Shown piece by piece: positions 9,312 through 62,300 of a DNA stretch of 64,000 bases. The notes beneath the pieces are model-generated. The model worked only from the letters and a program-made list of their open reading frames with translations. It ran no database searches and was not told where the DNA came from. The DNA comes from Lytechinus pictus (Eukaryota), in assembly GCF_037042905.1 (NCBI RefSeq), contig NC_087251.1:10356001-10420000 (forward strand), written 5' to 3'. The position numbers and the translations under genes are program-made. Each line of letters opens with the position of its first letter. Position 1 is the stretch's first letter.

Positions 9312-9881
9312 CCCATTCTGTGTACAGTTGACAATACAGAAAGCTTTACATCTTAGATCATCTGCCAATTCCTCATCATTCCATGGACTATCATCCCAAG
9401 ATGATTCCCAAATTGAGTCCTCATCACCTGCCACGCCAAATGGGACAGTAACATCTTCTGGTAGATAGGTGGAGGTTTGCTCCCATGGAGTAGCAGTTGA
9501 GTCTGGTATAGACGGAACAGGTGCTTTAGTAGTAGGCAATATGTCTCCTTCTTCCTGCATCATTGTAAGTAATGATGATGATGGGGTCAGTAAAGATGAT
9601 GATGAGGTTGTATCCATGTCCATTGGTAGCGCCAACACTGTGGTTTTCTCCTGATATGCTTCATTTGTCGGCCATTGTGGTTTGCTATTATTACCTGTGT
9701 AGTTGCTGCTAGTGCTGTTTTCGTTGATAAACGGAGACGAGAAGGAGTTGATGGTGGTTAATTCTAAATTTGTCTCAACATTATCATTGGTTATGGTGCC
9801 TTTTGAAGTAAGTCCAAATGGAAGCTGAAGGAGGAGGATGTTGAGGATAACAATCGATGGGCTTACCCTCATTCCCATCAT
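9312..9881 (-). CDS. First coding exon (190 aa) of a secreted or membrane protein: signal peptide, S/T-rich mucin-like stalk, acidic patch, start of Cys-rich segment
   Basis: Acceptor tttgttttcttag at 9909-9910 (exon starts 9908). In-frame TAA then GCCATG at 9881. Hydrophobic N-terminus (IVILNILLLQLPFGLTS). N-glycosylation sequons (NSTS, NYTG, NNSK). Ends CKAFCIVNCTQNG at a phase-0 GTAAGT donor (9311). The ORF track beyond this point is intron read-through. Confidence 0.85.
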
Positions 9882-11089: not shown

Positions 11090-11372
11090 CCTAAAAAATT
11101 CAGAAAGTATGGAGTAAGATCCAGTAAAGTAAGTCTTGATGCTCCTAATCCAACAAGCAAAGTGATCTGAAACATGTGTTCATCGGACATCACTGATGGT
11201 CTTCTCTGATATATGAAAGTGTGCTTGTACCAACGTAGGAAGTGATGAACAGCACGTGACAAAATACTACTCCATGACGAGAGAGAGAGTGGGAGGGAGG
11301 AAGAGAGAGAGAGGGGATTGAAGCGGTAGATCTGCGCACACTTCTGAGCTTGGGCTAGGATTCTGGTGAATG
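11090..11372 (-). other. Candidate 5' UTR exon of the host gene
   Basis: Strong donor TAGG|GTAAGT at 11089. Higher GC than flanks. Lies directly downstream of a promoter-like motif cluster. The 5' boundary is approximate. Confidence 0.5.
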
Positions 11373-11530
11373 ACTGGTACAAGGAGGGGGCGGGAGCTAA
11401 TATCTATGCAAATGGCGCTGACGTAGATGAGAACCGTGGTGGAGGATGCGCTGTACGTGAATAGGCCATGGATGGGTGCTGCATAAAATCTGATTGGTTG
11501 TAAGTTGCAGTAAGAGAGATGGTTGCTTTC
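11373..11530 (-). promoter_or_regulatory. Putative promoter
   Basis: GC-box GGGGCGGG (11387-11394), octamer ATGCAAAT (11406-11413), CRE-like TGACGTA (11419-11425), TACGTG (11454-11459) and CCAAT box CTGATTGGTT (11490-11499) within 150 bp. Confidence 0.55.
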
Positions 11531-11786
11531 ATATCTATTGATCAATGCCTTGGACCATCTCCATCATTGATTAATATCTTAATCAATTATTATCTTATCA
11601 TTACCATCAGTAGGTACTGTAATAAACTTTTTTTTTTATTCTTGAAGTAAAAAAAAACATCGAAATTTTTAATGGAAGTATTATCTGTCATACTTTACCA
11701 ACAAATCAATATTCATGTAAATTTATAGAATATCAATCAAAAGCGGAAAGGAATATTAATGTTAACAATATTAATAATTCAATTAT

Positions 11787-11837
<51 letters not shown>

Positions 11838-11849
11838 CACTGCCACTAC
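11787..11849. repeat. (TAC)n microsatellite
   Basis: About 17 perfect TAC units followed by degenerate units. Confidence 0.95.
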
Positions 11850-12287
11850 AATAAAGAAAACAATGAAAAATGAAAAGATGAAAAAAGAAAAGGGAGGGAA
11901 GGATAATGAAGGGAAAATAAATGACAGAGAAAAGAAAAGGACAGCCTATTATGAGTATTATTAGTACATTTACATTAGAATATCAGACACATAATGAAGA
12001 AAGGAAGAAATGCAGACAAATATTGATATAGATAATACTACAGATAGATATTCAATTTTAATGATTTGTTGATAAAAAAACTTCATTCGCAGCATAAAGC
12101 TGAATTTCAATTTTTTTAACAATATAATGAATTGATAGATAAAAAGTAGTATGAGAGAGATGAGAAAGAAAAGAAACAAAAGAGAGAAAAAGTGAGAAAG
12201 AAAGAGACAGAGAGAAAGAGAAAGAAAAAATAAAGTGTGTATGTATTCCATTCACTGTTCGTCACTGGTGAGAGCAAGCACACTCAC

Positions 12288-12450
12288 GCTACGGACTTCC
12301 GTTGTGGTAAAAGAGGCTGAATCAAACGCACAAAGAAACCATGCAGTGAATCATTCTTCAGAAAAAAAAAGCTAACCATCTCATCAAGATAACAAGGAAG
12401 AGGAGCTCTGCAGCACACTCCGCTCTCCCCCCGCTTTCCCTCCGCTCCTA
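12288..12450 (-). promoter_or_regulatory. Candidate alternative first exon/promoter
   Basis: Minus-strand donor GC|GTGAGT at 12287. CpG-containing, GC-richer patch with ETS-like acttccg and CCGC-rich boxes at 12418-12450. Confidence 0.35.
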
Positions 12451-15288
12451 CTTATCAGAAAACCATCGCACAAACAACCTGCTGTTCCGGTTCACCAGGA
12501 ATTTATTCTACAAAATGAGCCGGTATGTTCATGTTCGGAAGAGAGCAAAATATCAAATATGTTTGACAAACACTAGTGGGAAAAGGGAAGCGACATAAGG
12601 GGAGCAAATACATGCATATAATTATGAAGGAAATGTATTTAGAAAGGAAAAAAAAATATGAGGAAATGGGACATGCTCCCTAATTATCATTTTTCTGTTC
12701 TTTTTGTTTTACATCTATGAATTTAATTTGTCTATTAATGCAGTATAATTGGAATAAGAATCTATAGAATAATATATACATGTATGTAGTTTTCTTATCT
12801 ATTATTGAAAAGAATTTTAAAGATGAAATTATACATCTTTCATTTTCAAAATAAAAGAAAAATCAGAGATAAATTGGGGATATTGGGCAAATTGGTCACA
12901 AAGTCACATATATTCTAAAATATCATTTTACAATGTAACTTAAGAATCATTCATGATCTTTGTATGTATTGACTTTCATCCATCCACTGAACTTTGCTCT
13001 TTAAAAGTGATATAAAAATTGATGCATGTAAAAATAAATTCCAAGTATAATGCTTGAATGTTCTCTTATGGAGATATGGTATTTTTATTCTTAATTCAAG
13101 CTAACTGTTCATCATTTGCCAGTTTAGTTGCCCTATCTCTATAGAAAGTCCATACTTAATGTATCATTATGATGAAAAACAGTCTGAATGGAATAAATGC
13201 AAAATCAGAGATCATCAATTGGCTGGTTAAGAACAGAGTAAGATAAATCTCACTTATCCCAGCTGCCTTTTGTTGTAACTACGTACATTATAAGTGATGC
13301 TATACAACGGTAGGTCTTTTTGAGGGTACTCATTAAGCCTCAAGGCAAAAACTGAGGTTTCTGGCCGAGATTCTATGATTCGCCATTGTCGATTTGATTA
13401 GTTGCAAGTGTAGGGAATTTGTTCAAATTGATCAGCAATGATAGTCTACACATTTGAGAAGGGTCGCTTAGAGATAGATTCTTTGTGTGATAAATCTATC
13501 TTGGTGTTTTTCATAAGATTGAAAAAGGGGTTAAACAGATCATTTCCATGCAATGTCTTGCATAAAACCTCAAATTTACAACAACAAAAAATCACAGCAA
13601 AATTATCTCTCCTTTCTTAATGAAATGTCTTTGGTTTCATGGGATATTTTTATTTTAAAAATCAAGAAAATACCTCACAGAACACACATAAAAAATTGTA
13701 AAACAGCCCTCCTGATATGAGGGAAGAAGCAGCATAATAAACACATAAAATCACACCCACATGTACTAACCATGGACATTTATATAGGTCCATGTACTAA
13801 CTAATAGAAAGTATCTTATTATCAAAGGAAAACTGTGTGAGTCTTATATATTGATATGATTGAAAACAAGAACAAAATAATGTGATGATGCTTAAACAAT
13901 TTTACTTCATATGTTTGATCAGAATCCTACAAAGAGTCGGTGAACAAATAAAATTAGTGATTTGGGGCCTTCTTTACGTAATTGGGCAAATCTTTGGCTT
14001 AATGCATAAACTAGCATGATTAATTAGTTATGAGATATTTCAAGAATTTGATTGTACAATTTTGTAGATTATGCCACGGGTAATGTGTGTACCAATTTTC
14101 GTCATGGTCACACTGTCGATGGGATGAATGGGATGGATCAGCCCCCCCCTCCAGTGTTCTTAGGTGTCAAAATAACCAATTTTTTAGGGTTAGGTTGATT
14201 TCTTATAATTATATATAGGCCTTCAAAGTGATATTTTATTTGACTTGACAAGTATTTTTTGTAAAGTGATACAAGCCTTGAATTCGGAAAATTACAATCA
14301 GTTTTAAATATAGGATCTTTCCATGAAAGTAGACTCTTTCCTGATACACATTCATGAAACATTTATGAATAACCACCAAGATCAGGCTGGTCAATGAGTA
14401 TCTAGAATGAAATAGAGTGATTTGAAATTTTATATCTCTAAATTTAAGACATTGTTATGTTCTTCTCAGTAAAGAGTACTTGACAGTGAATAAAACTCAA
14501 ATCAGAACCAAATAAGAAAAACAAAAACTGGTTTATTTTGTCTATTCGCAGGGGTGTGCATATACCCATGATTTAAAGAAAGAGGGAGCAAATAAACATG
14601 CATTGTATTTGAAACAAAATTAATTTCCAAGCCCCCCCCCAAAAAAAAAATAATAATAAATAAAAAATAATAATACATAAACAACATTTAAAAAACTTTC
14701 ATGAGAAGAAAATTTATTTTAAAAATACATGACAAGCAGTAATAAAAGCTTTTATTTAAAAGATTTTCTGAAAAAAAAAACCCAACATGGATGGTAAGAT
14801 AAAATAAGTATTACAATTCTTTCAGGGGAAGAGTGTTATGGGAACTAAACCGATATTTGTATCATGTGTGGAAAATGGAATGATCATGGATTTAAGTATA
14901 TTTGAAATTTCAATATAGTATATGTGTTAAAAGCATTTTTAGCATTGACCCCCAAACAAGGAAAATGTTGCCTATTTTAATTATATGACTTGGTATAAAA
15001 GAAAAAAAAAAGCTATGTACTTTGTGGGGAGTGAGATTAAAAAGGAGAGGGGAATTCAATTTTAAATCCTACTTCATAGTATTGGGTGATAAATAAATAT
15101 ATGCAACAATTAAAGAGTAAAGTGCAATTACCTATCAGCACCTTTTCCATCTTTTTGTTATTCTTCAAAAGATACTTCATCAACCTGATTTGAAAAAGGG
15201 AGCTTTCTATGCAATCACTTAACCCTTTCAATGTCAAAAGAATACCTTTATTCATCCTTCAAAAGGTGACTTGGGTCTCCTTTCTTAC

Positions 15289-15401
15289 CCCAGTCGTCCC
15301 CAAGCTGAATACATGGGGTTCTATTTCCTGAGGATAGCTTCATCAATCCACCTGCTTTTGTCATCAAGGTCATCGCACCTTCCTCCCACCCTGGACAGGA
15401 C
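15289..15401 (-). other. Candidate 113-nt internal exon (UTR or coding)
   Basis: Acceptor tttcttttgtgaacag (15402-15403), donor GG|GTAAGA (15288). About 50% GC in an AT-rich background. One frame is open. Confidence 0.5.
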
Positions 15402-15767
15402 CTGTTCACAAAAGAAATTTAATCTAAATTAGAAACAGAGGTTTTATCATTAAGGTCAATATCTCTAAGAACTTTAGAGGGGCCCATTAATAAAGGAAAT
15501 AATATAATTAACATAGCATGTATTTATAAGGGAAATAATTTATTTTTCATTTACATGCAGTAGTAATTTCCATCGTAACATTAAGTAATGGTGATTTCTT
15601 TTAATATTAAGACAAACACAAACTGGGTAAATTGCCATCATAAAAAAGAAGACACTATCTTGACAAAACAAGGGCTCACTCAGTACCAGTGAAAACATTA
15701 TCATAATATTGCATTTCATCTACAATTAAACTACTGATTCATACTTACCTTTATATAAATCAAAAGA

Positions 15768-15890
15768 TGATTGATTGATTTTATTCTTACAGAATATCAC
15801 AAGATATGGAATATAATAAATGGAAAGAATAACTTGACAGAATAACTCGTGAAAGTCAAAAGGCTCATTTCCAATGTGGTCCTTCTATAG
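15768..15890 (-). mobile_element. 3' end fragment of L2/CR1-group LINE
   Basis: Reverse complement reads ggaccacattggaaatgagcc...aataaaatcaatcaatc: poly(A) signal followed by a short-repeat tail. Confidence 0.45.
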
Positions 15891-16324
15891 TATAAAAACA
15901 TTATAGTGACAACATCATGTATTAACTTGACAAGTACAAAAACATGGTATAAATAATGACATATCCCTCAATCAACTAATTTACAAGAACCTGAACCAAA
16001 CAGCAATTATCTACTGTATATATGAAACAAGATTATAATGTACCCTATATTATCTACAATACTGAAAACCAACTGGGCAAAATATAAGCTTTTTAATGGA
16101 AATACTGTTTTTGAGAAGATTTGGGTATTCATTTACTGCACTCTTAAAGTAAAAAAAAAATTAAATGGCATACAATTCTAAGGGGGTAGAAAGAGAGAGA
16201 TAGAGATGGGGCATGGGATGGCAAGACATAAAAGTATGATTCTGATTACATGAACTCATATTGAAATTATTGAATCCTCTTTTTGTATTCAGTGCTTTGA
16301 AATATATAAAAGCAATTAAATGTT

Positions 16325-17309
16325 AAACGGCAAACGCCAAGCATTGTCTCGTCTGCATATTGCAGTCATGAAGAGACTGCATGTCAAAACTACATGTATG
16401 CTATATGACTTAGATGGACCTCTGTTATGAATTTGGCGATCTCACCTCGAAGCTATAGAAAGTTATTGTGTGTACAACACAGCACAGTGCCAGTCATGGA
16501 AAGTTCACTGACCTTTGACCTTATTCAAATTTGACTCATATTCGAACTTGACCTGTGACTTCAGGAGATGGACCTCTGGTATGAATTTGGTGATCCCACC
16601 TCGAAGATATAGAAAGTTATTATGTGTACAACACAGCACAGTGCCAGTCATGGAAAGTTCATTGACCTTTGACCTTATTCAAATTCGACTCATATTCGAA
16701 CTTGACCTGTGCCTTCAGGAGATGGACCTCTGGTATGAATTTGGTGATCCCACCTCGAAGATATAGAAAGTTATTATGTGTACAACACAGCACAGTGCCA
16801 GTCATGGAAAGTTCATTGACCTTTGACCTTATTCAAATTCGACTCATATTTGAACTTGACCTGTGCCTTCAGGAGATGGACCTCTGGTATGAATTTGGTG
16901 ATCCCACCTCGAAGATGTGTACAACACAGCACAGTGCCAGTCATGGAAAGTTCATTGACCTTTGACCTTATTCAAATTCGACTCATATTTGAACTTGACC
17001 TGTGCCTTCAGGAGATGGACCTCTGGTATGAATTTGGTGATCCCACCTCGAAGTTATAGAAAGTTATTATGAGTACAACACAGCAGTGCCAGTCATGGAA
17101 AGTTCATTGACCTTTGACCTTAATCAAATTCGACTCATATTCGAACTTGACCAGTGCCTTCAGGAGATGGACCTCTGGTATGAATTTGGTGATCTCACCT
17201 CGACCTATAGAAAGTTATTGGGTGTACAACACAATTGTTGACGACGATGACGCTGACACCGGAAATAGTGATAACTATGTCTCGCTCCGCTACGCAGGCG
17301 AGACAAAAA
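16325..17309 (+). mobile_element. Helentron-associated/pearl-like non-autonomous element with internal tandem array
   Basis: Subterminal inverted repeat tgtctcgtctgc (16345-16356) / gcaggcgagaca (17294-17305). 3' hairpin tgtctcgc...gcgagaca, (GAC)-like microsatellite at 17240-17260 and an A-run end. Confidence 0.75.
16412..17232 (+). repeat. ~154-bp tandem repeat, ~5.4 units
   Basis: TGACCTTTGACCT recurs at 16509, 16663, 16817, 16956 and 17108 (spacings 154, 154, 139, 152). Units are near-identical. Confidence 0.97.
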
Positions 17310-17594
17310 TAAGTATGAATAACAAAAATAAAGTATGTAATAGAGAAGCTAATAAGATAGCAGAGAATAGAGAAAATCTATGTTGTAAAATAAAATGCTT
17401 CATGAGGTAGAACTGACAGACAAAATCTCTTAAAGGTCAAGTCCACCCCAGAAAAATGTTGATTTGAATAAATAGAGAAAAATCAAACAAGCATAACCCT
17501 GAAAATTTCATCAAAATTGGATGTAAAATAATAAAGTTATTTTTTTTTAAAAATAACCATTGCTGGTCTTCTTTATTCATCAAACAAAATATAT

Positions 17595-20500
17595 TCACAG
17601 TTCTAACATTTGCCTCCATTTCTGGAGGGAAATACGTGGTTTTCTAGATTTCACATTTTCTTCTATCTGTAAAGGATATCTTAATAGGTCCAACAAAATT
17701 TTAAACAGCCTTTGAATAGTTATTTTCCTTTTAGATTCTTTTCCAGCGAATCATTTATAAATCGTATATAAAGCATAATTCAAAATTATATCTACATCAT
17801 TTTTTTCTTTTGATCTAAATGAAATTCCTGATAATATATGACATGGCTGGAAATGAAAATTTGGCAAAATATATTTCTGTACATTTTCTTCAACTTTTTT
17901 CCAAAATGATATCATTATGTTACAAGAGAAAAACACATGACTGCAATCACCTTTTTTACCACAGTAAAAACATTGGTCATTTTCTTTTAATTTCCATTTA
18001 AAAAGGTTAGCTGGTGTTGCCAAAATAGTATACATGAACTTAGAATTAAAATTGACCAGTACATTGTCCTTAACAAACTTTAACTTAAATAACCAAACAT
18101 CTGTCCAAACTGGTAAACAGTCAAATACTAAGGTATTACACCAAAATTCCTCTGCTCTAGATTCTTCGGTTTTTACTTGGATCAATTCATAATATATTTT
18201 CCTAACTGTCAATTTACTTAATGAAATAATACTATCAACCAATCTAATATCATTATATACATTAAAATTGGATCTAAATTCCAAATACTTCTTTTGTAAT
18301 AAACTTGTATTAGAAAAAAGAGACATGTTGCCACATAACTGAATAGCCTGTCGTATACGAGCATACTGACTGTACCACCTTCCATCCTTAACTACTATTT
18401 TAGCGCTAATCTTATCTATAGGTAGAAAACCCTTATCACCCATTAAATCCCCCACAAACAAAATATCAGAGTTAATCCAATTCATATAAAATAACATTTT
18501 CACTTTGTATAAGATATCTTTATTCAGCCAAATAATTTCTTTGTGATAATTATGCTGTATATCTGCTTGAATATTTCTTGAATAGTTATACCTTTTTAAT
18601 AAGAAAAATGTTGATATCAAGTTATAATAGAAATAAGGCATCCTGTTTTCCAAAAAACATTTGTTTTTAATATTATATTTACAATTCATAATAACTTTTA
18701 TACCACCCAGTTGCTGAAACCAGTAATCAAACATACATTTACATCCAGGGTTTAACTCATCACTATATATTTACAAAGCCAAAATAAATTCAACGACGCA
18801 ACTTTTGTTTCAACATCTAACATATTTAGGCCACCTTCCTCTATTGTGCTTACTACATTAGTCCGTTTAACCTTTGCGGGTCGTCCTTTCCATAAGAAAT
18901 TTAAAAATAATTTATCGAGCTCCTTTACTATTTCTTTAGAACAACAAAGAACTTGTGTTGTATAACTTATTTTCAACATAATCAACGATTTTAATATTAA
19001 AATTTTCCCTCTTAACGCAAGGTTTCTCTGTTTCCATATTTGTAACAACTGTTAAATTTTTAATATTCTTTGTTCAGACCAATTCATTTCTAAACTTAAA
19101 TGCTTCTTTTTGCAAAAATAAATACCAAGAGACTTAACATAAACGTCCTCCCATAATATATTTCCAATATTATTTGTCGGATTGTTGTTTCCCAGCCAAA
19201 TAGATTTTGTTTTGTTTTCATTTAAATGAATTCCAGAATATGTTTCAAAGTTTCTAATGATATTAATAGCTGTATTGCCTGATATAACTGTCCTAACAAA
19301 TAATGTCATATCATCTGCTAACTGCAGTATCTTAAAAGTATTCTTATTTTCATGTTTGTAACCATTACTCAAACCTATGATATTATTATTTTGTCTTATC
19401 TGATTTGCAAGGGTTTCAATGCAAAGTATAAATATTAATGCGGATAAGGGACAGCCCTGTCTTATACCCCGCGATGGGTTTATATATCTTGTTAACCATC
19501 CATTTGTTAATATATTAAGATGGTGATCATTATATATAACTGAAATCCATTTCCTAAAACTATCTTTAAAACCATATATCTTTAAACAAGCATCAATAAA
19601 CTTCCATTCTAACGTATCGAATGCTTTCTGAAAATCGGCAAATATAATTGCACCATCGGTTATGTTAAAAATGCTATAATCTATAACATCCTGGATTATT
19701 CTGGCATTATAAATACCACTCCTGCCCTTGATATAACCTACTTGGTCTTCATTAATTAAATGAGTTAAAACCTTTTGGAGTCTGTTTGATAGTACTGTAG
19801 CAAGTATTTTGTAATCAGTATTAAGTAATGTAATTGGTCGCCAGTTACCTAATTCCATTGAGTCTCCACCCTTAAATAACAAAGTTACAACACCCTTTCT
19901 CTGCAAAAAACTAAGCTTACCTTTGCTATAACCTTCATTTAAACTATTCACAACAAGATCTTGTATATCTACCCAAAATTCCCTAAAAAACTGTTAATCC
20001 GTCGATACCGGGTGTTTTATTGAGACTCATTTCCTTTAACACATTTGTGGCATCTTTAATTGAGATCAGTCCCTCGCATTCTTCGGCTTCACTACCAGAT
20101 AAATGAGGATGATTTATTTCTTTAAAGCCCCTTTCACAATTGACGTACGACCATTTGCGACCTTTTGGTCGTGCGACAGGCTGCAACAGGCATCAATCGC
20201 TAGTCATCTCATAAGATCGCACAGAGGCTTTCACAGTTGCAACAGCTGTCGTACAACAAAAACAACCAGTAAACCCCGTTGCACGAGTAAGTCGCATATG
20301 CTCTTATTGTGCTCGTGCGATCACATGCGAGTGTTGCACGAGGGATTGCGAGCGGAACGGTCGCATACATGCGAATGAAACGGTAGTGCAATGTTGTAAG
20401 CCGTTGCGATCGGTCTTGCAACAGTCTTATGGCCCATATTTTTATCGCAACCAGTCGCAAGACAGGTCTCTGTACATGTAGGTCGCTTGCACATGTGCAA

Positions 20501-22616
20501 GTGTTGCACGACCTCCAGTCAAGTAAATGCGACTACTTAGTTGTACCACCTCTCGCACCAAGTCGTACAACGTTGAACAACACTCGCACGATGATCGCCC
20601 GACCGATGGTACGACCCCGGGTACGGCCTGATGCGAGTGAATCGATCGTATTTGATCGCGTTCGGATTTTGAACATGTTCAAAGTTCAGATGTGACCAGT
20701 CACGACCACCTCGAGTTCGTGCGACCGTCTACAACGACTGCGAGTGCTCGCAAGACACCAAGAGATCGATCGTGCAACAACAAGAAAAAACTGTTGCAGG
20801 CGGTCGTAAACTGGTCGGACGTCAATTGTGAAAGGGGCTGAACGGTCGCATACATCCGAATGCAACGGTAGTGGAATGTAGTAAGCCGTAATTTCGATCG
20901 GTCTTGCAACAGTCTCATATTATCGCACCCAGTCGCAAGACTGGTTTCTGTAGGTCTCCAGCACATGTGCAAGTGTTGTACGACCTCCAGTCGACTAAAT
21001 GCGACTATACTTAGTTGTGCCACCTCTCGCACCAAGTCGTACAACGTTGAACAACACCCACACGATGATCGCCCGACCGATGGTACGACCTGTTGCGAGT
21101 GAATCAATCGTATTTGATCGCGTTTGGATTTTGAACATGTTCAAAGTTCAGATGCGACCAGTCACGATCACCTCCGACCACCTCGAGTTTGTGCGATCGT
21201 CTACAACGACTGCGAGTGCTCGCAAGACACCAAGGGATCGATCGTGCAACAACAAGAAAAAACTGTTGCAGGTGGTCGTAAACAGGTCGTACGTCAATTG
21301 TGAAAGGGGCTTAAGATACGCTTCGATCAACAACAGATCAGGATTTTGTGTTGTGTATAATGAAGAATAAAACTTTTCTACTGACTTCATAATTTTGTCC
21401 CTATGAGTTACTACTTTCTTTCCTATCTTTATCCCTGATATTTATTTTTTTGTACTATTCCTATGTTCTAAATTTAAAAAGTATGAAATATTGCTCTCAC
21501 TTTCTTCAAAATGTGTAACTCTAGACCTAACTTTGGCACCATCGCATTGCTTTTTGTAATACATATTAACCTTTCTTTGAACACTAATCATCCGTTCTTC
21601 TATCTCCGAATTACCTGCATAAAGTTGCACATGTTCTTTTTTTCAATGAAATTAATTCTTCCTTCTCAGCTTTCCTAAGCTTCTTAGCAAAAGATATAGT
21701 ATAATCTTTAATTTTCAACTTACATAGGTCCCAAATATAATGAGGATCACATTCTGCTTTAAATTCATTTTTAGTATGAGTGATAACATTAATGACACCA
21801 GTTTTATAATCGCCATTTTTCAGGAGTGAGTTATTCATTTTCCAGTATGAAGAGCCACGGCAGCATTATGTGATGAATGTATTGTCATAGTAATAGCACA
21901 ATGGTCTGGACACATTGAGACTGGTTTAATGGACATATTATAAATGTAATCCACAAACTCATTTTGAACTAGCCAGTAATCTATCCTTGATGACATATTC
22001 AGATACTTACTTCTATATAGGTATATTGTTTTTTGTTTTTGTTAATTTTTCTCCATACATCAACCATCTTAAATTTTTTAACAAATTGCATATATCCATT
22101 TGGTTTCTTATATATTGTTTTATTACCTATCACGTCAATACTTGGATCGTTAACACAATTAAAATCACCTCCTATGATTAAAACATGTGGACCAGTAGTC
22201 TTACAATCATAATTACTCATAATCTTTTCCAACTTTAAGAAAAAATATTCTTTATTCTTCTTCTCTGTCGGAGCATAAATATTAACCAAAAATACATTTT
22301 TGTAATTTATTTTAGTATCTGTAATCAAAATCCTTCCGTCGTCTGATGAGTAAATCAAATTAACAGGTATTTGGGTATTCTTTTTCACTAAAATTGAAAC
22401 ACATCTGCTATGATTGCTTCCGTATGAATTAAAAATTGTTCCATTCCAGTCTCTTTTCACAATGTTCTTTAGATCTTCCATGAAAAAAGTTTCCTGTAAG
22501 AATATAACATCCGTATTTTTCTTCTCCAAATAATGAAATAGTAACCTTCTCTTTTCTTTATTTCTTATCCCTCTCACATTGAGGGACAAAAGAGAGATTC
22601 CCTTAACATCATTCAT
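17595..22616 (-). pseudogene. LINE ORF2 (APE endonuclease + reverse transcriptase + C-terminal CCHC), disrupted by stops, frameshifts and a MITE
   Basis: EN motifs SLNVRG, FLQET, VNIYAP, GGDFN. RT motifs PGIDGL, WRPITLLNTDYKI, DFQKAFD, GIRQGCPLS, LADD. C-terminal CFYC...H...C. Split over ORF-track pieces 21999-22616, 21611-21838, 21442-21630, 21148-21390, 19983-20186, 19052-19951, 18752-19048 and 17751-18734. Confidence 0.95.
20126..21311. mobile_element. PIF/Harbinger-like MITE, composite (one left TIR, two right TIRs)
   Basis: TIR agcccctttcacaattgacgtacgacc / ggtcgtacgtcaattgtgaaaggggct. TSD TAA (20123-20125, 21312-21314). An extra right TIR ends at 20839. Removing the element restores ORF2 in frame (AYLKEINHPHL). 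Confidence 0.95.
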
Positions 22617-23704
22617 TTCTTGCTCGAACCTTTTCTACGCCTTTTCCTGGTTTTTCTTCGACCTTTCTCCCGCCGAATACCTCTCGAATCACGTGATTGC
22701 TCGGATTCTGATTCAAACGACTCGCTATCATCGGTTGAATGATCAACTGGATCTGAAGACTTCTCTTCTCGCGCCCACATATCTCAGATACTCTGCTGTT
22801 TTTTTCTAAGCCTCTGTTCTTCTCTTTTGGCCTGACATCTTGTGTCCTCTCTAACGTAGAACCCTCTGTTGTCATGTGATCATCTCGCTTTCTTTCAGAA
22901 GTAGAAACGGAGGATGCCGCCAGTTGCTGGTCATACTCGAACGCGCGATGTCCGGGATTCTTGCATTGTCTGCAGACAAAAGGCTTAATTAGAACAGGGA
23001 GATGAGTGATGCCTCGTCGCTAAGCACCGTGAACACGTTGCTACCGACGCTTCCTTTATCTGACCTTCGTGAAAGATTCGCGCCTTGAAAGTAGCTATGC
23101 TGACATGGCGGGCAAGCGGCTGACGTGGCTGGTCGATGAAAACAACACTGTCCCCATTAAGACATGTAGTAAGTTGACCTCCTACTCTCAAGCGTTGTCT
23201 AAAGACTTTCCCCTTCACAACAAGTTTCCATCCTTCTAATTCAGCTACAATGAGATCATCAGAGACAGATAGTGGAACATCTTTGATAGTGAGCCTCACA
23301 GAATTTTCGGATTCGTATGAAATAAATGGGTTTCTGTCATAAACACTCACCATTTGTCATCTAAGTAGAATTCCACTGCTAATGAGAGTGATCCTTGCCA
23401 CAAACCTCTAACCTTCTGCACTCCAGTTAAGCGTTGGTGATCAACCACTTTGGCCAAGGCTAGGTACAACTCTTCACTGGTTGCCATGTTATTTTGAACA
23501 TTAGGTATGTCCCGTTGCCTGATGTAAACTGGTTTCTCTCCTTCCCTTTGAACAGGGGTACTGGGTGTGGCTCTATATACCAGCGTATGTTGTTGTGGTA
23601 CTAGCGCCTGCTTGGTCTGAATGCACATATTGATTTCTCTCATTTTTCTCACCTTTCTCTGCATTTCCTTGAAATTCTCTTCCTAAGTCTCTTCCACTAG
23701 CCAT
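22609..23704 (-). pseudogene. LINE ORF1 (gag-like, two zinc knuckles), frameshifted
   Basis: ATG at 23704 (MASGRDLGRE...TYAGI). Central VRLTIKDVPLSVSDDLI...ARIFHEGQ. Knuckles CSRCLATRHHSSPC and, after a 1-nt shift near 22986, CRQCKNPGHRAFEY. Basic tail whose stop overlaps the ORF2 start (ATGAATGA). Confidence 0.85.
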
Positions 23705-43732: not shown

Positions 43733-46700
43733 ACTGATTTTCTAGATGTAGCAGGGGTCTTAGTAACTCTCAACATGGAATTAATCAGAAGCAATTGTAT
43801 GCTTTTGAACAAAACATAATAAATAAAATTTAAAAAACCTGGCAATTGTATTGTATTGTACACAAATATGTATTCCTGATTGGCAGAAAATCAACGGGAA
43901 TATAATCTTTAAGTTTGATTCTAACTCTTCTGCAATGTACTCTTGTGTTAGTTCAAAGAAAAAATAATGATGAAAATCTTCTATAAAAAATCTTATGACC
44001 ATGTTCTAATAGCAAATGACCAGATAGTTGGCAAAAATTTGTGAAAAGATCCTTCTTCTTCTTCGTCTTCTTCTCCTCCCTTTATACCATTCTTTGTATA
44101 TTTGACATGAAATGTTGCAAGATATATTATTTATGTTAATTGTGTAGAATGTTTACTTATGTGCTTATTTGCAATTTTAATAATAATTTATGATGTACTG
44201 GGGTTTTGGCTTCATCTCTTTAGTCTCTGCGGCCATGCTCTACCCCATTCTCTCTCTCTCTCTCAATTTTCTTATAATGCATTCCTTTTCTACTGCTGTC
44301 TCTCCCTGCTCCCTCACTTTTCTCTCTCCGATCAATCTCCTTGTATTACTTTCTGAAATACATAGATCTACATATTGTAAGTTGATTCTAAAGTTGATGC
44401 AATTCTATCTTTAAAACTTACAATTCTACATACTGTACTTTGATCTATGTAATTTTCATTTGTAATGGCATTGCAAATTGGCCCTTTCAGCTCTTCTGTT
44501 GGCTAATATTTATCTGTGTATGCCATTGAATAATAAATAATATCCTTACTATACATTATATTATTGATTACTGGAAAGAAATATATTTAATACAGCATTA
44601 TCATGCTCAGGGAAAGCTATCCACTTAATAATAGTAATATATATGGAATTTGTAATGCGCCAAATCCACTTGGCAGAGTGCCAAAGCCGCAGTAAAAGAC
44701 AGAAAGAAAGAGAAAAGTACAATACAAGACAATGATTAAGACAATTTCTCAATTCATGCAATTAAAAACAGTGTCTATTTATAAGAAATCACATTCATTT
44801 TATTTATGTATCAAGCAAAATTTGAATATAAAGCATTAAACAAGAAGTGTCAACTTCATAGTTTGATGAGAACTCCTGAGTAACTCGTAAGCAATAAATT
44901 TAAAAAGTACATAATATTAAAGGGCTGCTGACTTTAGCTCATCGTCATATTTCTTTCAAATAGGACTCTATAATTTTCATCTAGAACCTTCCCAAAAATA
45001 TGGGGCACTAACTATACGACTTAATTGAAATATGAAAGTACAGGTGATAAACGGTCAAGTATTTGGTACTTGAAGAAGGTGAAATTGATGTAGGGTGTAG
45101 GGTATCTGCAAAGATATGATGAGAATGAGATGACTGGCAATTTGATACACTCTTGACATACATTGGAAAGAACTTTTCAAGAATGATTGGAAAAGAATAT
45201 TGAACTTTCAGCACTTCACCTGCTTTGAGATCAACTCAGCAGTGCACAACAATCTATGCACAACTAGAACGGTGGTGGGTGGAGTATACAATAAAAAAAA
45301 AACTTTAAGAGGGGGGGGGGGAGATGAAATAGTAAACCCTTCATCACAGCTACAGCCATTTTCCACTACAAAGATGTTCCATCAATAGAATAACATGTGA
45401 TTAATAAAAATAAATATCCATGGACTGATATTAAAAATTTGGGATTTTGAATTTTCTAAATTGATTATTACTAATAAATCTAGGGAGTATCACTATCAAT
45501 TTTGAAATTAAGGGAATTTCTGTAATCAATCCTCAGCATTTTCAAACAGCTTTCTAAATATCTTTTCAGTCTCACTGAAGCTGATTAAAAAAATACTTTG
45601 TATGGGGCGTACGTAGCTATACATTACTGGAACAGCCTTGCATTACATCTACTCCAAAAATTTCAATTAGTCAAAATAAAATCAACTGATTCTCTTCTTT
45701 CTTTTCTATGTTTTAAAAGGCATCTCAGTACTTAGAGAGCCAATGATTAGCGTACGCAGCCCTTGAGGTGAAGTGAGATACAATCTCACATTTCGGCTTT
45801 TACGGTAAGTAATAACATCCAACGGAAAGTTCATTGAGAAAAAGTCCAGATGGAAGATATCCAGGGGCTTCCAATGATGTAGATACCATCAAATGATTAA
45901 CCAATACTCTACCTGACAAAGTAGTCACTGATTTTATTTGATGTAGTTGAATTAATCACATTACATACTGTATGGTGTCTGCTAATTGGCCCATTCACTT
46001 AATTCTACTTCAATTTTCGTTACTAATTATGATTATAAAAAGATGAGAGAAAGATGATATGTAAATCTGAAGAATCAATGGTAGAAAGAGAGAGAGATAG
46101 AGGCTGAGGAGTAAGGGGAAGGCAAAGTGCTGGGAAATATCTGATCACATTCTTTATGTGGGGAGGGGGGGGGGCACCATTTATCATAAAAGTACAGCTA
46201 TACAATAATTTTGGAAATACAATATCTGAATTTCATTAAGATTAAGGTCACAAAGTGGTTTAAATCATTTCATCAACAACAATCAAATTGAGATCATTAA
46301 TACAGGATACATTCACCCTAAGCAATTAAATCAATCTCCATTAGAACAAAAAAGTGCACTCACCATGAGGGCTTTGGTATGAGCAGATGGGGTAGTCAAG
46401 GCATCCATGGGGGGAATGGAAAGTCCTGAAAGATAAGAAGAGTAGTACTTAACCTTTTTGTGGTGAATCTTTTCATCAAAGCATTAACAATTTCCCCATT
46501 ATGTAACACTAATGTTTATTCAAATTACAAAATCTCCTTCTTTTGATAGTTTTTTCTGTTATCAATGTCTTTTTTTTCAATGATCTTGATGTGCATTAGA
46601 CATTAATTTTAATTAAAATAAAAATGTATTGTATTGTTGAAGTTAGCATCATCAGAGCACATTCAGATGTTGAATGATTTCATTGGGCTTTATGAAACCA

Positions 46701-48012: not shown

Positions 48013-48177
48013 GTGTTTCATAAAGCTGTTCGTAAGTTACGAGTGACTTTACGAACGAATGGTGAACCTTTGTTATGGTATATGATAGACATCAGATTTT
48101 TCATGGGTGTTGATGTAGTTCCTACAAAAGAGTCACCGTCAGTCTTTTCGTAACTTACGAACAGCTTAAAGAAACAC
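48013..48177. mobile_element. Short MITE (165 bp)
   Basis: ~30-bp TIR gtgtttcataaagctgttcgtaagttacga / tcgtaacttacgaacagcttaaagaaacac. Confidence 0.85.
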
Positions 48178-49009
48178 TTATTTGGAATGAGGTAGTGGTG
48201 GTGTCTTTTTTTTTTTTTTTTTAACTTTAGAGCATGAATGCTTGATAGCAAGTTACCAGAGGACTGATTCATCTGTGAGAAGCACTGCTCTACCAACTGA
48301 GCCATCATACCACCTTTTAATCATCATGCCTCCATATAGGCCCTATTGCTTTAGCATTCTTCATTGTGCACCACATTATGATGTATTAGGATGAGCTGGA
48401 GGGTATGTATTCCTAGGGAATGACCAATATCCATATCAAGTACCAAGATGTGAGGGGAAATCAAAAGGCATGGAGAGCTGTCTGAGAGGGGACGGTATCC
48501 CGCCCTACTGTAAATGGGCTGATACTTAGCGTCGCCATGTAAATAACATGATGGGGCTATAAGCATCACCAAGTGGAGTGGATGAAGGGGGCACAAAGAA
48601 TTTGAATTGGCAATTTATCCATATCCAAGATCGATTATTTTCATTTTAATTTCTTCTTAGAAACCACTTCCATACATGAATTAAGTTCCGGTGATCATAC
48701 ATTGAAATTGGTTTTATTTATGAGTCATAAGTTGCATATATCTTTCTAAAATACATGTATAAACTCAAGTTAAACATTGTAAGGGTACTGTAGTGTGGTA
48801 CAAGGCATTAAAAAATACAAAATTGGTTATGCTGTTACCAAACACTTCATTATATAATTATCTGTGACATAGATATTTATGTGTTGCTGTACTTCATTAT
48901 GCAGTGTCTCAATGAATTTTGTGCACTACATACAAGAAAGCAAAAGGAGAAGATGAACAACGCTTAAACAAAATAATTCTTAACTTTGGCCATCATTAAA
49001 TATAATGAA

Positions 49010-50352
49010 ATATTAGATAGCCAAGACAGATAGCCAAGCGCGATTGGTCCATAGCGTGTCACGTGATATTATCGAAATCAATGTATTTTCCAGCCGGTTC
49101 ACCTTCGATGAATATATTCTTCGTGTATGGCGCCCTCTTGTGGATTAGATGTTACCAATTACACGGAAATAACATATGTGAGGCTAAAGTAGCATTCTTT
49201 TGCAATCGATCAACACTCGATATCAATTGGAATAAATCAATTTTCGAACCGGACCGCCGAATTTAAGTGAGTCCAACGACGACGAGTTAGGTTTAACGTT
49301 AGGCCTTCTTCAGGTACTAAAATGGAGTATATAGATTTGTGTAGACAGGAATAACCGTCATTTCTGAAATTCTGGGGATTTATTTAACAATTTCTGGATA
49401 TGTATTGGTGAGTGGAGCCAATATCGCCAGATAGAGACTGAAGAAGCTTAAATTAGACCTAGACTAGTCTAGTTAGTTTTAAAACTTTTAGATCCAGACT
49501 TTTGGACTTGGTCTATTAACGTCAAAGATTTGTGTGATGTGTGATGTCTGATGAGCAATGAGGAATAAGATCAGCTTTTGGACAATAAAATTGGGTAAGT
49601 AGATAGATCTAGATCTAACGTTAGATCTACATTATAAATAAGTTCTAGACTTATGTTAGACCTATTTTTTTTAGATCTAATGATAGATCTAGGGCCAGGC
49701 TTGATTCTATCGTTAAAAGTTAGAGAAATCTAATGTTAATCTTGCTAACTTCAACGACAACGTAAGTTAACATTAGTGTTGACAAAACATTAACAGTTAC
49801 ATCTAGATCTAACGTACTTGTTAGTTAGATTTGGTCCTGGACCTGGTTCGACAACAAAAAGGTCCGGACCACCACCAACAGTAGTCTGACCTAGATCTAG
49901 ACCTCTAGTCATGTTTATCTCATCCCCAATTAATCTGCACCTGATCATTGCTCAACATGCACATGCATTCGATCTGCCTTGGGTGGGTCCTGGGCCTGGA
50001 CCGGACTCTAAATTAGATCTAGATCTAGGCCTAAACAAACTTGATTTTGATTAGAAAAGGGTCATTCATTACGTTAGGCTAACGTTACTTAGATCTATAC
50101 CAGTTCCATCAGTCACTTAATATGCACGCATCGCAGACCTAACTTTAGATCTAAGGTTAGATCTATATCTTCATCATTCAAGGCTATCTAATATAACAGA
50201 TATTGACTGATGGGGTGTGTAAAAAAAACATTCTTTGGAATGCCTAAAGGATTTACATTTTCCCTCAGCGCTGTGCGCTTCAGGAAAATATAAATCCGGC
50301 AGTCAAAAGAATGTTTATATTACACACCCCATCAGTCAATATCTGTATATTA
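49010..50352 (+). mobile_element. Crypton-like non-autonomous element
   Basis: ATATTA direct repeat at both tips. atattagatagcc (49010-49022) is the exact reverse complement of 50182-50194. Terminal hairpin 50196-50346 has perfect 27-bp outer arms. Confidence 0.75.
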
Positions 50353-53300
50353 TCATAGGAAAGAATAGCCTTTGTTTTGCACCTATTTGCAATTGTGATC
50401 ATGCATGCCTGAATGATTATAAATGATTTATTATTTTCTGACCTTTCTGTGATAGCCTTTCATTTGATGGAATTCTGACATTTTTTTTTTTTTCATTTTG
50501 ACAGTATATTAAGTATGAACCTATTGCAACCCCTATACAAAAGTTAATGATGCAACAGTATTTTGAAATTAATTCATCCAAAACTGTTTGCAAGAAGAGT
50601 ATATACTGATTGAAATACAAAGCATTGTAAATCCTGTAAAAACATATCATCTCATCTCAGGAAATAAAAAAGTCATGTTCATTAAAGCATTGCAAGCTAA
50701 GAATGATAAAAAGGGTTTAAATATCAGTGCATGTTTGCCTTTTTTTATCTGTTTGCACCTTCTCATCTGTCTCTGTCTCTGTTTTTCTCCTTTTCTCTTT
50801 CTCCTTCCTTTCTCACACTATTTTCTGTTAAGAGGATTCATTACCAGTAATGAGAAATTCTAAATTCTTGATTATTATTCACTTTCAATGATTTAACAGA
50901 ATTGTGTTTTGGGGGCCCATTTACTAATTACCTCCCGAGTCTCTCTTTTCCTGGGAAAATTTGAGAAAAATATATTCTCTTGAAACTGTTCCAAGAGCAG
51001 AGATGCTTTTGGTCAAACTCACAGCACCAGAACAATCTGAGCAGAAAAGATGGTCAAATAATAATGATTATAATATACAACATTTATAAAGGTATTAATA
51101 AAATAGTGAATTGTTTGAGTAAGTTAAATTGGTTAATTATACAATTACGACTATGACAGGTAGAAGATAGTTAGGTTCTCATTTTTCATTCTTTCACCCT
51201 AAATGCCTTGCAGCCTTCCCAGTCAAGCCAATGCAATCCAATCGATGAATTGTAAAGGCAATAATAAATGTTTCAACTTAACTTGTTAATTTTATTTTGT
51301 GAATTCAACATTGCACTCTACATTGTATATTGAGGAAAAATTATATTCCATATCATGGAAATCTTACTTTTGTAACACAAGCATTAACAAAGCATGAGTG
51401 ATCAGGAGATCATGATAAAAACTAAATTGCCTGATATATTTCACAATCTACTAAAGGTTTTTGCATATTGATAACATGATTTCTATATTTCCACATTCAA
51501 AGATGAGTCATTCTCATTTTCTTGGATAAAGGAATTAGCAAAGCACTTTCATCAGATAATTCACATAGAGAGTGCATAATATGTAATAACACAACCCTGA
51601 TCAGTCCCATCTGATTTATTTTACATCAGATTTTCCTTTGATTACGAGACTAAACAAGAGGGAACACATTCCCATTCACAGAAAACTACCCACGCCTTTT
51701 TTCTCCTAACAATAGGTCAACTACCTCTAGACTCTTTCAATTACAATCCTGAAGAGATCAAATGCATTTATATTCGCCGCCACCTCCACACATTTTGGCC
51801 CTATTTGCCTGATTGGAAAACTATAACCACAGGATACGACCAAAGAAGAGAAGTCTACTTTGCAAAATAAGCCCACAAAGCAGAATATAAAAAGGGATAT
51901 TTCATTTGGATAGCACCAATTCCCCTTTCTCTCTCTCCCTATCTTTTCATCCCCTTTGGACGCACAAACATGCGCAAACATCAGAGGATTTCTACGTCAA
52001 TCTCGTTTGTGCTCCCACGTGGTTTACGTGCAGCAACATGAAATGGAATACAGTCTCAGATGATCTGTTGCGCTCATAAATTGTGCCATTAAGATGGAGA
52101 GCAAGAAGGTGTTAGAGAAAACAATTCTTTTCCCCAGTGTTTATCCCAATGGGATCATTGAGTTACATCATTGTATCTAGCAGATACTTTATCATATGTC
52201 AGATTTCTATGAAATTGAACAGAATCTATAAAGTATATCTAATCTATGATGAGCACTCACCATTACATACATGAAGATGTATGGTTTATTATATATCAGT
52301 TGAACGATGATATTAATACAGGCTCTTTTTGTTAAATGCAGTAAGGAATATATAATACTCAACAAATCATTCATATTTTTCAATATACCCAAATGTAAAA
52401 GTGCATTAAATATCAGGTAAGTAACAATTTAATTTTTCCCCAACCTGTGATCTATTAATAAATCACAAATTTGGATAAAGATCTTCATAATTACTTATCC
52501 AGGACTAGATTCCAACTTCTTCTTTCAAGCCGGACTTTGAAGAAAACCCTTAAATCTATAACATTAGGCTTAAATTATGTAACATGGGCTCATGTGTTTA
52601 AAAGGCATGTAATATCATTTCAAGCATAATTAAATAAATGGACAATACATCACAAATAAGCACTAAGTGAATCTCTGATACTTCGATCTCACATCGTTAT
52701 GTTGAGAAGCTATCTTAGACCCCATTTACAGTGAAAGAAAAGCAGTGCCAAGCTTGCATAATTTTCAGTGTAAACGCTCAAAAGGCCAAACGCAGTACAA
52801 ATGCGATTCGGCCTGGTACTACACTGTGACCACCTCTGGCCACCAAATAATTACATGTTTACATGTAGAGTGTCACTACAACAGAATATTGAAAGGTTGA
52901 AATTTAGGTCTGGCTAAGACTGCCGCTGTAAGCACACACAAATGGTCTCACTTGTCAATATCGGCAAAGTCTTGTCCGCAAGAATGAGCAAAATTGTCAT
53001 TTAGATAACTTCACATCTACTGTAGATCGTGTGTGAAGAAGGCAAAAAAATTCATAGAACATGGATATGAATGGAAATGTCACTTTGATATTTAAAAAGA
53101 AATGAATGGACAGCATGTCTGCACATGTCAATATTGATGAAAAGACTGCCCCATGCAGGATGAGAAAACTTGCATCCAGGATGAAAGAAGGCAACTGAAA
53201 TGAAGAGAGCGGGAGAGGGAGAGATGTGCCTACAGGAAAAGAAGAGGGGAAAAGACAGTGAGAGAGAGGAGGAAATCCTATGACAGGCTATCTGGAACTT

Positions 53301-56342: not shown

Positions 56343-57058
56343 AGGACACGTCCACCCCAACAAAAAGTTGATTTGAACAAATAGAGAAAAATCCAAGAAG
56401 CATAACACTAAAAATTTCATCAAAATTGGATGTAAAATAGGAAAGTTACGACATTTCAAAGTTTTGCTAAATTTCACAAAACAGTTATATGCATATCCTG
56501 GTCAGTATATGCAAATGAGGGGACTTAAGACGTCACTCACTCACTATTTCTTTTGTATTTCATTACATGAAATATGAAATATCTTATTTTCCTCCTCATT
56601 GGAAGGTGATATAAGTTTTCTTCCTCCATGAACATGTGGAATAACAATTTTATGGTTCCGTAAAACTGGTCCTTATTGTCAAATCTTTAAAAAATGGAAA
56701 TATTGTATAATTAAAAAAATAAATAACAAAAGAAATACATCACAGACTCTCTCATTTGCGTGTTGCCGGGTTGTGCATACACTGTAAAAAATGAAGTGCT
56801 AATTTAGCACTTACAGTGCTTGTATAGTGACTGCGCTACGAGTGCTCTAGTTTAAATTTGAACTAGAAAATCAGCACTCGTAGTGCAGTCACTATACAAG
56901 CACTGTAAGTGCTAAATTAGCACTTCATTTTTTACAGTGTCTAACTGTTTTGTGAAAAATAAGCAAAGCTTTTTAAAATGTCATAACTTTCAACGTTATT
57001 CTTGTTTGCTTTTTCTCTATTGATTCAAATCAACATTTTTCTGGGGTGGACTTAACCT
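56343..57058 (-). mobile_element. Kolobok-type non-autonomous element (family A), copy 3, opposite orientation
   Basis: tcaa|aggacacgtccacccc ... ggggtggacttaacct|ttaa. Interior is the reverse complement of copy 1. Carries a nested insertion. Confidence 0.88.
56780..56939. mobile_element. 160-bp palindromic MITE (CACTG...CAGTG)
   Basis: Two 67-bp arms differ at one position around a short, itself palindromic spacer. Flanks TA/TC fit a 2-bp TA TSD with one change. Confidence 0.93.
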
Positions 57059-58616: not shown

Positions 58617-59500
58617 AACAAGTGGAATGCCTCTGGCTGTCTCACCTGCATCACGCGATTCAATATAGCAGCAGTGCTGACTTTGAAAACTACTATAAAA
58701 CAATTATTCACAAAAAACACCATTCATATAATGATATAATACTACGTTCATTAACATTTGACCTTGATCATGTGACCTAAAACTTGTCAGTGATACTTGA
58801 TTACCCCTAGATCTATAAACTTTGAAAGTTATGACAGCAATCTAATAATTACCTCTAAAATGGCCAAAGTTCAATGACCTTAAATGACCTTTGACCTTGG
58901 TCATGTGACCTGAAACTCACACAAGATGTTCAGTGATACTTGGTTACTCTTATGTCCACGTTTTATGAACTAGACCAATACACTTACAGAGATATGATGG
59001 TAATTCAACAAATACCCCCAACATGGCCAAAGTTCATTGACCTTAAATGACCTTTGACCTTGGTCATGTGACCTGAAACTCGGATGGGATATTTAAAGAT
59101 ACTTGATTACTCTTATGGCCAAGTTTCATGAATTAGATCCATAAACTTTCAAAGTTATGATGGTAATTCAACAGATACCCCATTATGGCCAAAGTTCATT
59201 GACCTTTGACATTGGTCATGTGACCTGAAATTCGCACAGATGTTCAGTGATACTTGATTACTCTTATGTCCAAGTTTTATGAACTAGACCATTAAACTTT
59301 CAAAGTTATGATGGTAACTCAGGCAGAATGTTCAGTAATACTTGATTAACCTTATGGCCAAGTTTCATGAACTAGGTCCATATACTTTCTAAGTTATGCT
59401 GTCATTTCAAAAACTTAACTTAGGTTAAGATTTGGTGTTGACGCCGCCGCCGGAAAAGCGGCGCCTATAGTCTCACTCTGCTATGCAGGTGAGACAAAAA
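58617..59500 (+). mobile_element. Helentron-associated/pearl-like non-autonomous element with ~162-bp tandem array
   Basis: Perfect 14-bp subterminal IR tgtctcacctgcat (58638-58651) / atgcaggtgagaca (59483-59496). 3' hairpin gtctcac...gtgagac and (GCC)n. Repeat starts at 58862, 59025 and 59187. Confidence 0.85.
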
Positions 59501-61623: not shown

Positions 61624-62300
61624 TATTATTACCTATACGAAGTGTTTCTCCTTGGCAATCATTATCCATATTTTGCTTTCTCTGATTTCGCAGCGGTCAA
61701 TATCGTGCCGTATTTTCTCTCTTCCGGGTTTTCCCATTGACTTTGTGTGTAAATTTAACAGCGGGCAATATTCGCGAAATCCGGTTGGAACCAGTTTGTG
61801 AAGAGACCGCAGTTGTAGCGCAGCGCGGCTCTATACAGCGCAGCGCATAGTGCGATGCATGTCATGCACATAGACGTGAGAAAATGGCTACTTCTAAGAG
61901 ATTCGCTTGTTATGGTGCAGACGAATTTGAAAATATAGTGACAAAGACGCTGAAAATACCAAAAAGTCTATGAAACAGGCCGTTGCTGTATTCCGTGAGT
62001 ATCCGCTTGAAAAATCTATTCCGGGCGATTTCGAGACACTGGATAAAGAGACCCTTGGAAAGATTTTGGGGAAATTTTATGTGTCAAATTTTGGGGAAAT
62101 TTATCAACACAGATTTTGGGGATTTTTTAAAATCAATTTACTATATAGGTAATAATAATAGTATTAACTGGCATAGAATGAGATACAAACCTATATTTCC
62201 CTCTCTGAATCCAATATTGCCCAAGCCGAAGGCGCGGGCAATATTGGATTCACATAGGGCAATATAGGTTTGTATCTCATTCTATGCCAGTCAATATTAT
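61624..62300 (+). mobile_element. Crypton-like deletion derivative
   Basis: tattattacctata (61624-61637) is the exact reverse complement of 62144-62157. Terminal hairpin 62162-62222/62236-62296 with a GCCGAAGGC apex. Internal coding remnant. Confidence 0.8.
61884..62086 (+). pseudogene. N-terminal remnant of Crypton/DUF3504-type tyrosine recombinase
   Basis: MATSKRFACYGADEFENIV / (frameshift ~61940) DKDAENTKKSMKQAVAVFREYPLEKSIPGDFETLDKETLGKILGKFYVS. Fits the RF...NT.K...AV..F..Y.......L...L.KFY pattern recalled for Crypton, ZMYM and KCTD1-type proteins. No catalytic domain is present. Confidence 0.7.

Follow-up and report, generated by a model that had tools for sequence, protein, structure and literature searches.

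Animal Cryptons have been described as lacking terminal repeats, and all eight CryptonA rows in the supplement of Kojima and Jurka read 'n.d.', several of the published CryptonA elements measuring 2073–2289 bp (PMC3212892). In the portions available, a 2026 paper on CryptonA reports repeats that are variable or poorly conserved (PMC13465315), and a curation guide gives Crypton with a short direct repeat only (PMC8969392). Two further systems are relevant for the way in which their DNA pairs with itself. The ICR of DIRS-1 is, according to the accessible passages on it, complementary to both extremities, essential, and active after first-strand synthesis on single-stranded DNA (PMC7192593). In attC sites, extrahelical bases direct strand choice on the folded strand, as stated in the excerpt at hand (Bouvier et al. 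2009, PMC2727003). Here, we describe a locus from Lytechinus pictus that shares features with each of these systems. The window is a stretch of 64,000 nucleotides (contig NC_087251.1, positions 10,356,001 to 10,420,000 of the forward strand), and all positions below are counted from its first letter.

The segment at 49010–50352 is a single repeat unit that encodes no recombinase (Table 1). The initial annotation of the letters had read its tips as ATATTA-gatagcc on the left and tatctgt-ATATTA on the right, and both stand at the hexamer positions. It had also proposed that the reverse complement of the junction formed by joining the tips lies internally with one extra base, which is borne out by an exact 13-nt match followed by a single A. 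In the window, this 13-mer is found as this pair only. Neither tip is an inverted copy of the other, and long inverted terminal repeats are absent; the 13-mer alone ties the left end to the right part. The chance of a 13-mer within 1200 nt is approximately 5e-5, a figure obtained post hoc. Of the two control hairpins, 48023–48167 has a 12-nt upstream match at the shuffle floor and 56779–56940 has none. Because an unrelated hairpin can carry a 12-nt match, the 13-mer alone is not decisive and independent evidence is needed. A search of 49010–50352 with 116 YR (tyrosine recombinase) homologs by tblastn gave no YR remnant (best E 0.26–0.82), and Rfam gave no match at the gathering score over 48900–50500, its three matches all being far below.

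Table 1. Positions of the unit at 49010–50352 and of its companion in the window
Feature	Position	Strand	Remarks
Left hexamer ATATTA	49010..49015	+	followed by gatagcc; left boundary at or inside the hexamer
Left tip	49010..49022	+	13-mer, exact reverse complement of 50182-50194
Short tandem duplication in left tip	49015..49038	+	11 identical nt, period 13; seen in the sequence
GATTGG box (49042-49047) and CACGTG (49060-49065)	49039..49069	+	like the same position in YR-encoding L005, L024, L038
High-copy left terminal segment, CpG-rich	49010..49170	+	contig depth, CpG counts
Variable non-coding interior	49171..50165	.	rich in TAGATCTA-like palindromes
Internal complement of left tip, ICR-like	50182..50194	+	exact 13-nt match
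Extra base	50195	+	A on +, T on -; separates internal complement from hairpin arm
Outer left arm	50196..50244	+	pairs with 50298-50346, 92% over 49 nt; first 27 nt exact
Inner stem and tip	50245..50297	+	longer in other copies (loose ends at 50283, 50293)
Right arm, equal to right terminal sequence	50298..50346	+	pairing; contigs of public runs
Right hexamer ATATTA	50347..50352	+	preceded by tatctgt; family boundary between 50349 and 50353
Companion element	61624..62300	+	left tip 61624-61637, hairpin 62158-62300
CryptonA YR N-terminal remnant of companion	61872-62083	+	frameshifted ORF remnant
Internal complement of companion	near 62144-62157	+	same layout as 49010-50352

The window holds several other features. 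The first control hairpin is a short inverted-repeat element whose base matches the 12-mer at 46687–46698, 1.3 kb upstream. The second is a near-perfect palindrome with 68-nt arms, inserted in another repeat, and it represents a different kind of element since its base has no upstream complement. On the minus strand, ORF pieces at 17751–23682 are interrupted by a GC-richer duplicated insert (20605–21314); we take them to be a broken non-LTR retrotransposon with presumed endonuclease and reverse transcriptase parts. Tandem arrays at 16412–17233 and 58807–59321, with units of 154 bp and 163 bp, share a TGACCTTTGACCTT motif. A 242-aa open frame at 9156–9884 (minus strand) with a signal-peptide-like start and a Ser/Thr-rich region is probably a host exon.

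Independent support for 49010–50352 as a unit comes from population contig data. Seven public DNA runs that share 5–8% of sampled words were found, and four of the seven, from three samples and three studies, were aligned at 80% likeness. Summed contig depth, which does not equal copy number, was 0 over 48700–48967 and 22,000–100,000 over 48968–49168 in all four runs, 0–9,100 over 49169–50039, and 10,000–18,000 at 50040–50106; in each of the four runs it was 15,000–165,000 over 50174–50374 and at most 203 past 50375. Single contigs are only 20–110 deep, indicating that both ends are very abundant, and the similar depth of the two ends lets us infer that they occur together in most copies. The depth steps at both tips, seen in four of four runs, agree with the predicted element boundaries and with a high-copy non-coding unit. 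Three contig pieces begin at 49009 with 182–310 unaligned letters of unrelated DNA before them, and are probably one genomic copy in three runs. Behind 50353, loose ends were found in 20–32 contigs per run with an agreement of 0.42–0.45, and this low agreement indicates many different right flanks. Among the listed pieces that continue beyond the right end, the match stops at 50346 (one piece), 50348 (one), 50349 (four, two of which have just 4–6 further letters) and 50353 (two), suggesting that the last bases of the right hexamer may be target DNA.

Three joints connect the left end with the hairpin by way of shorter family members, namely 49157>50013 (three runs, two samples), 50117>50166 (three runs) and 50022>50187 (four runs), and the segment 50013–50117 is common to these shorter members. 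The initial annotation had named an independent MITE as one finding that would overturn its proposal; in all four runs, the hairpin was instead joined to upstream element sequence. Repeat depth in the interior (49171–50165) is low and uneven, and internal deletion joints are numerous there. None of the listed contigs reaches across all of 49010–50352, and each joint is only as deep as a few copies. No contig covers the left flank of this locus in the four runs, and no empty allele was seen. One contig in run X2 joins 50353 back to 49028, head to tail, and maps only to the second unit of the left-tip duplication. Two readings were considered and rejected: that other copies are without the 13-bp duplication, because so high a depth in 48968–49034 would not arise if most copies began at 49028, and that the joint 50353>49028 is the predicted circle junction, because it has three more bases. 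In the same run, a 2194-nt contig (record 2) begins at the left tip (49028), matches to 49170 and continues with approximately 2 kb of other sequence, a length matching that of a full-length CryptonA. Searched against viral contigs and metagenome contigs, a 20-nt left-tip pattern gave 0 exact matches. Overall, 49010–50352 is a single multi-copy unit whose ends are conserved and whose non-coding interior varies.

The sequence 50170–50370 folds into a single hairpin (-64.4 kcal/mol, z = -17) that none of 200 shuffles equalled. The hairpin noticed in the initial annotation is present but longer than stated, since its loop is itself paired and 50190–50352 is all one stem. At the left end, no stem comparable to this 160-nt 3′ hairpin was found. 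Close to the tip, a tandem mismatch at 50265–66/50280–81 reads C.T/T.C on the plus strand and G.A/A.G on the minus strand, and the loop of 3 nt at 50272–74 is a purine-rich triloop on the minus strand. G.A/A.G mismatches and triloop-type features stabilise one DNA strand. The predicted folding energies of the two hairpin strands are near-equal (-60.6 and -61.0), which weighs against a strand-specific folding reading. In the family contigs, the majority letters at 50240, 50282 and 50305 mend stem mismatches of 49010–50352, which indicates that the present copy is old and decayed. Positions 50241 and 50301 change together from T-A to C-G, and 50215 runs the opposite way, with no partner change among the rows listed.

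The window contains a companion at 61624–62300 that has the same layout and is probably the 'first' element to which the initial annotation had likened 49010–50352. Its YR remnant is 85% identical over 46 aa to the protein P0001 (E 1e-14; one match among six candidates), and Pfam did not recognize the 73-aa remnant. P0001 has DUF3504 and Phage_integrase domains, both above the Pfam cut-offs; R194, H318, R321 and Y353 are invariant across 47 aligned homologs (47 of the 116 were used), and KIAA1958-like proteins from Strongylocentrotus and Lytechinus are among the named homologs. Judged from these sequence characters, the P0001-type recombinase is a YR of the CryptonA type. The left arms of 49010–50352 and the companion gave no significant local alignment (p 0.32); a 10-mer is common to their right arms. 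In the tip of the companion hairpin (62200–62260), the GAA loop is on the YR-sense strand, a polarity opposite to that of most YR loci and of 49010–50352; the tip was possibly flipped between the arms, and its opposite polarity weighs against strand-specific folding.

In a scan of metagenome contigs, we kept the best 80 of 468 confirmed YR relatives, which fall into 51 clusters; a YR alignment against viral contigs gave 44 pattern matches, none of which was confirmed. Counting hairpins that score 80 bits or more and lie no further than 1.1 kb downstream of the YR match, in clusters whose flank reaches 800 nt, we found a long 3′ hairpin downstream of the YR in 15 of 25 clusters among these best 80 of 468 relatives, versus 1 of 24 upstream. 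The other 10 of the 25 had no detected 3′ hairpin. L057/L067, L053/L054 and L060 have long flanks and no detected 3′ hairpin; such loci are possibly decayed copies, domesticated genes or a subfamily that lacks the design. For clusters with a hairpin and 200 nt of upstream DNA, the complement of the hairpin base was compared with the upstream DNA at p <= 0.02. A left-tip complement at the hairpin base was found in 10 of 13 clusters and with a control probe in 0 of 13; it was missed in L048, L051 and L062, the remaining three. Within the L075 cluster, L077 and L080 have the real tip, and three loci gave their match at another place. Tip sequences are wholly different from family to family, each matching its own internal copy over 12–46 nt.

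In the L008–L012 family, four left flanks and five right flanks are all different and diverge at the predicted ends without a variable duplication. It should be noted that metagenome contigs may be chimeric, as L010/L012 and L038/L040 share one flank only. The YR elements span approximately 1.8–2.3 kb, resembling published CryptonA sizes, and those with the design are, judged by their size, too short for an RT plus a YR. Of 32 hairpins, 28 fit a loose pattern for the hairpin-tip polarity of 49010–50352 and 6 fit the opposite pattern; its tip mismatch and triloop polarity recur in L005, L008, L024, L048 and L070. The same end design therefore surrounds CryptonA YR genes and, together with the YR remnant in the companion, upholds the earlier claim that architecture is conserved.

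The earlier description of the element as sequence-unrelated does not wholly hold. All ten families compared have a GATTGG box or a close variant (seven have it exactly) at a distance of 30–45 nt from the left tip; in 49010–50352 the box stands at +33. Comparison with ten families (20 tests) gave p values of 0.001 for the left end and 0.003 for the right end of L005, and 0.003 for the left ends of L024 and L038; the left-end match to L005 is weak by itself (blastn E 0.31) and partly a promoter-like motif. A CAGTCAATAT just before the right tip is common to 49010–50352, the companion right arm and the L005 arm, and the hairpin tip is similar to the tips of L048 and L024. At 49128–49143, in the high-copy left end, a stretch that resembles a CTCF site stands next to CCAAT-like and E-box-like motifs, and the family may spread regulatory motifs.

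The crossover core required closer inspection. The initial annotation had proposed a 6-bp direct-repeat core, which is exact in 49010–50352 but exact in only 3 (L008, L010 and L012, all of one family) of the 15 YR loci whose two ends can both be read, per-locus counts that chimeric contigs weaken. In addition, several family contigs stop matching after the first three bases of the right ATATTA, contrary to a 6-bp core. The L038 and L024 families have a left hexamer that tracks the internal copy and is unlike the right hexamer. An exact direct repeat of 6 bp thus seems not to be a trait of the family. The internal copy can be read as arm, T, hexamer and tip, which fits best in 49010–50352, the companion, L008–L012 and L020 and is plausible for L023, L024, L038–L040, L070 and L077/L080. 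In the YR families too, T stands at the extra-base place on the complementary reading. As far as the aligned letters indicate, the extra base is a kept feature whose register depends on the 6-base model. The conserved features are thus tip-to-internal pairing, the extra base and the strand-asymmetric hairpin tip. Two head-to-tail junctions from different families (the run X2 joint 50353>49028 and L077 positions 1–70) have 9 bases between the right arm and the left tip, and fit insertion beside an older copy better than a 6-base circle.

The best explanation of these data, to which we assign as a whole a probability of approximately 0.7, is an old non-autonomous CryptonA whose ends would form a recombination site by folding. 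The assignment of 49010–50352 as a non-autonomous CryptonA is very likely by itself, because YR loci share its end design and L005 bears a moderate likeness to both its ends; no autonomous element with its tips was seen among the metagenome YR loci. Like other Cryptons, the unit has neither terminal inverted repeats nor a variable target-site duplication, as judged from one locus of the family with both flanks. The YR of a full-length relative would move it in trans, and the end design would be the recombination site. Once one strand is exposed, the right arm would pair with the left arm and the left tip with the internal complement, an arrangement in which the two ends and the two flanks meet at a single point and a duplex site containing a bulged base is formed. 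The minus strand, which is YR-antisense in the coding relatives, would be the likelier substrate because of its G.A/A.G tandem mismatch, its 3-nt loop of the G-N-A type and its bulged T. The YR may exchange that strand to release a single-stranded circle, which would be inserted at an AT-rich target, with host replication completing the excision or insertion. Such a crossover would need few matching bases, so the exact 6-bp repeat of 49010–50352 may partly reflect target preference. For the folded single strand as the actual YR substrate, we put the chances slightly below even.

To our knowledge, the movement of Cryptons has never been shown. If the proposed explanation is true, any DNA between such ends can be mobilised, as the gene-less family shows. 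The defined end structure provides a rule for annotating CryptonA boundaries and a concrete substrate for a purified YR, which would be a compact structure-guided recombinase if the folded-strand reading holds. The copy at 49010–50352 is old and inert, and its value is that of a further independent family showing the kept features.

An alternative that we regard as unlikely places the unit in the same family but lets it move classically, as a double-stranded circle closed through a short core (the Goodwin model). The internal copy would then serve as an additional YR site in inverted orientation, used to flip the hairpin segment or to help the circle replicate in the way that the FRT pair does in the yeast 2-micron plasmid. 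In the duplex circle, the internal complement with the left arm and the right arm with the junction would form one long inverted repeat, and the companion tip, flipped relative to most YR loci, is what inversion would give. YR sites are moreover described as 11–13 bp inverted repeats around a 6–8 bp spacer (PMC3212892). However, such a circle leaves the strand-asymmetric mismatches and loop kept in most families unexplained, the extra base would break core identity between the two sites, and the tandem junctions seen have 9 bases rather than 6.

It is still more doubtful that the internal complement serves as a template for repair or priming, like the DIRS-1 ICR, instead of as a recombination site, with the 3′ hairpin self-priming synthesis, the ends being rebuilt on the internal copy and the YR acting later on a duplex circle. 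The layout equals that of the DIRS-1 ICR as given in the available text (PMC7192593), and the left hexamer co-varies with the internal copy. Nevertheless, the YR loci of approximately 1.8–2.3 kb have no RT beside the YR, judged by size only, and a copied extra base predicts 7-base junctions whereas the two seen have 9. A non-autonomous element of the Helentron/Helitron2 type, moved by an HUH enzyme, is highly improbable. The 13-bp pair as a short asymmetric inverted repeat and the 3′ hairpin fit the description in the accessible part of the curation guide (PMC8969392), and HUH enzymes read hairpins (PMC10288648), but the same partial description gives a small hairpin at either end and a 5′ T terminus in place of one 160-nt hairpin, and the sequence likenesses lead to YR loci, the Helentron being compared by description only. 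An independent palindromic MITE beside another repeat, with the 13-mer arising by chance, would suit an interior 10–1000 times less deep than the ends, the lack of a spanning contig among those listed and the 12-nt match of the control hairpin, but is largely refuted by a depth whose onset at the predicted left tip does not rest on the 13-mer, by the joints from the left end to the hairpin and the contig linking the right tip to the left tip, by family contigs that pass unbroken from 50166 across the hairpin base into the hairpin, by diverse flanks on the right side only, and by the same layout in 10 of 13 YR clusters.

Returning to the folded CryptonA, the unit and its YR-encoding relatives agree with described Cryptons (PMC3212892) in the DUF3504-type YR of relatives of approximately 2 kb, the presence in sea urchin and the abundance of non-autonomous derivatives that retain only the ends, and differ in the internal complement, the long 3′ hairpin and the extra base, none of which is described there. 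These three features are likewise absent from the portions available of PMC13465315, PMC5753468 and PMC8969392. No description of the design was found in the literature as far as its text was accessible, and Repbase or Dfam entries or Goodwin 2003 may mention palindromic ends. Eulor5/Eulor6 and the salmon elements Crypton-N1_SSa as well as CryptonA-N2_SSa (Kojima 2018, PMC5753468) are similarly non-autonomous Crypton repeats known by conserved termini; the part of that text at hand, by which alone they were compared, uses neither 'hairpin' nor 'palindrom'.

Going by the available text on DIRS-1-like elements (PMC7192593), both systems have an internal segment near the 3′ end that is complementary to both extremities (the circle junction), as well as a YR and single-stranded DNA intermediates, which in our case belong to the proposed mechanism. 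In contrast, 49010–50352 has no RT, gag or long inverted terminal repeats, the segment from its internal complement to the right tip is a 160-nt hairpin, and the complement has a left half of just 13 nt. By analogy with attC, as far as the excerpt describes it (PMC2727003), structure is kept while sequence varies, an extrahelical base lies near the likely crossover, and the strands are asymmetric. The attC sites belong to a bacterial cassette system, whereas a CryptonA site would use three distant segments of the transposon, and binding of the CryptonA YR to folded DNA is itself an analogy. More tentatively than for the substrate itself, we propose that animal CryptonA may be a eukaryotic folded-single-strand system, in which the YR would read not sequence but a structure made by ends annealed internally, the bulged base and the G.A-capped hairpin would choose the strand, and the design would correspond at the DNA level to the DIRS ICR, of which it is possibly the ancestor. 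A link by mechanism would then join bacterial integrons to Cryptons and DIRS elements, should the folded-strand reading hold.
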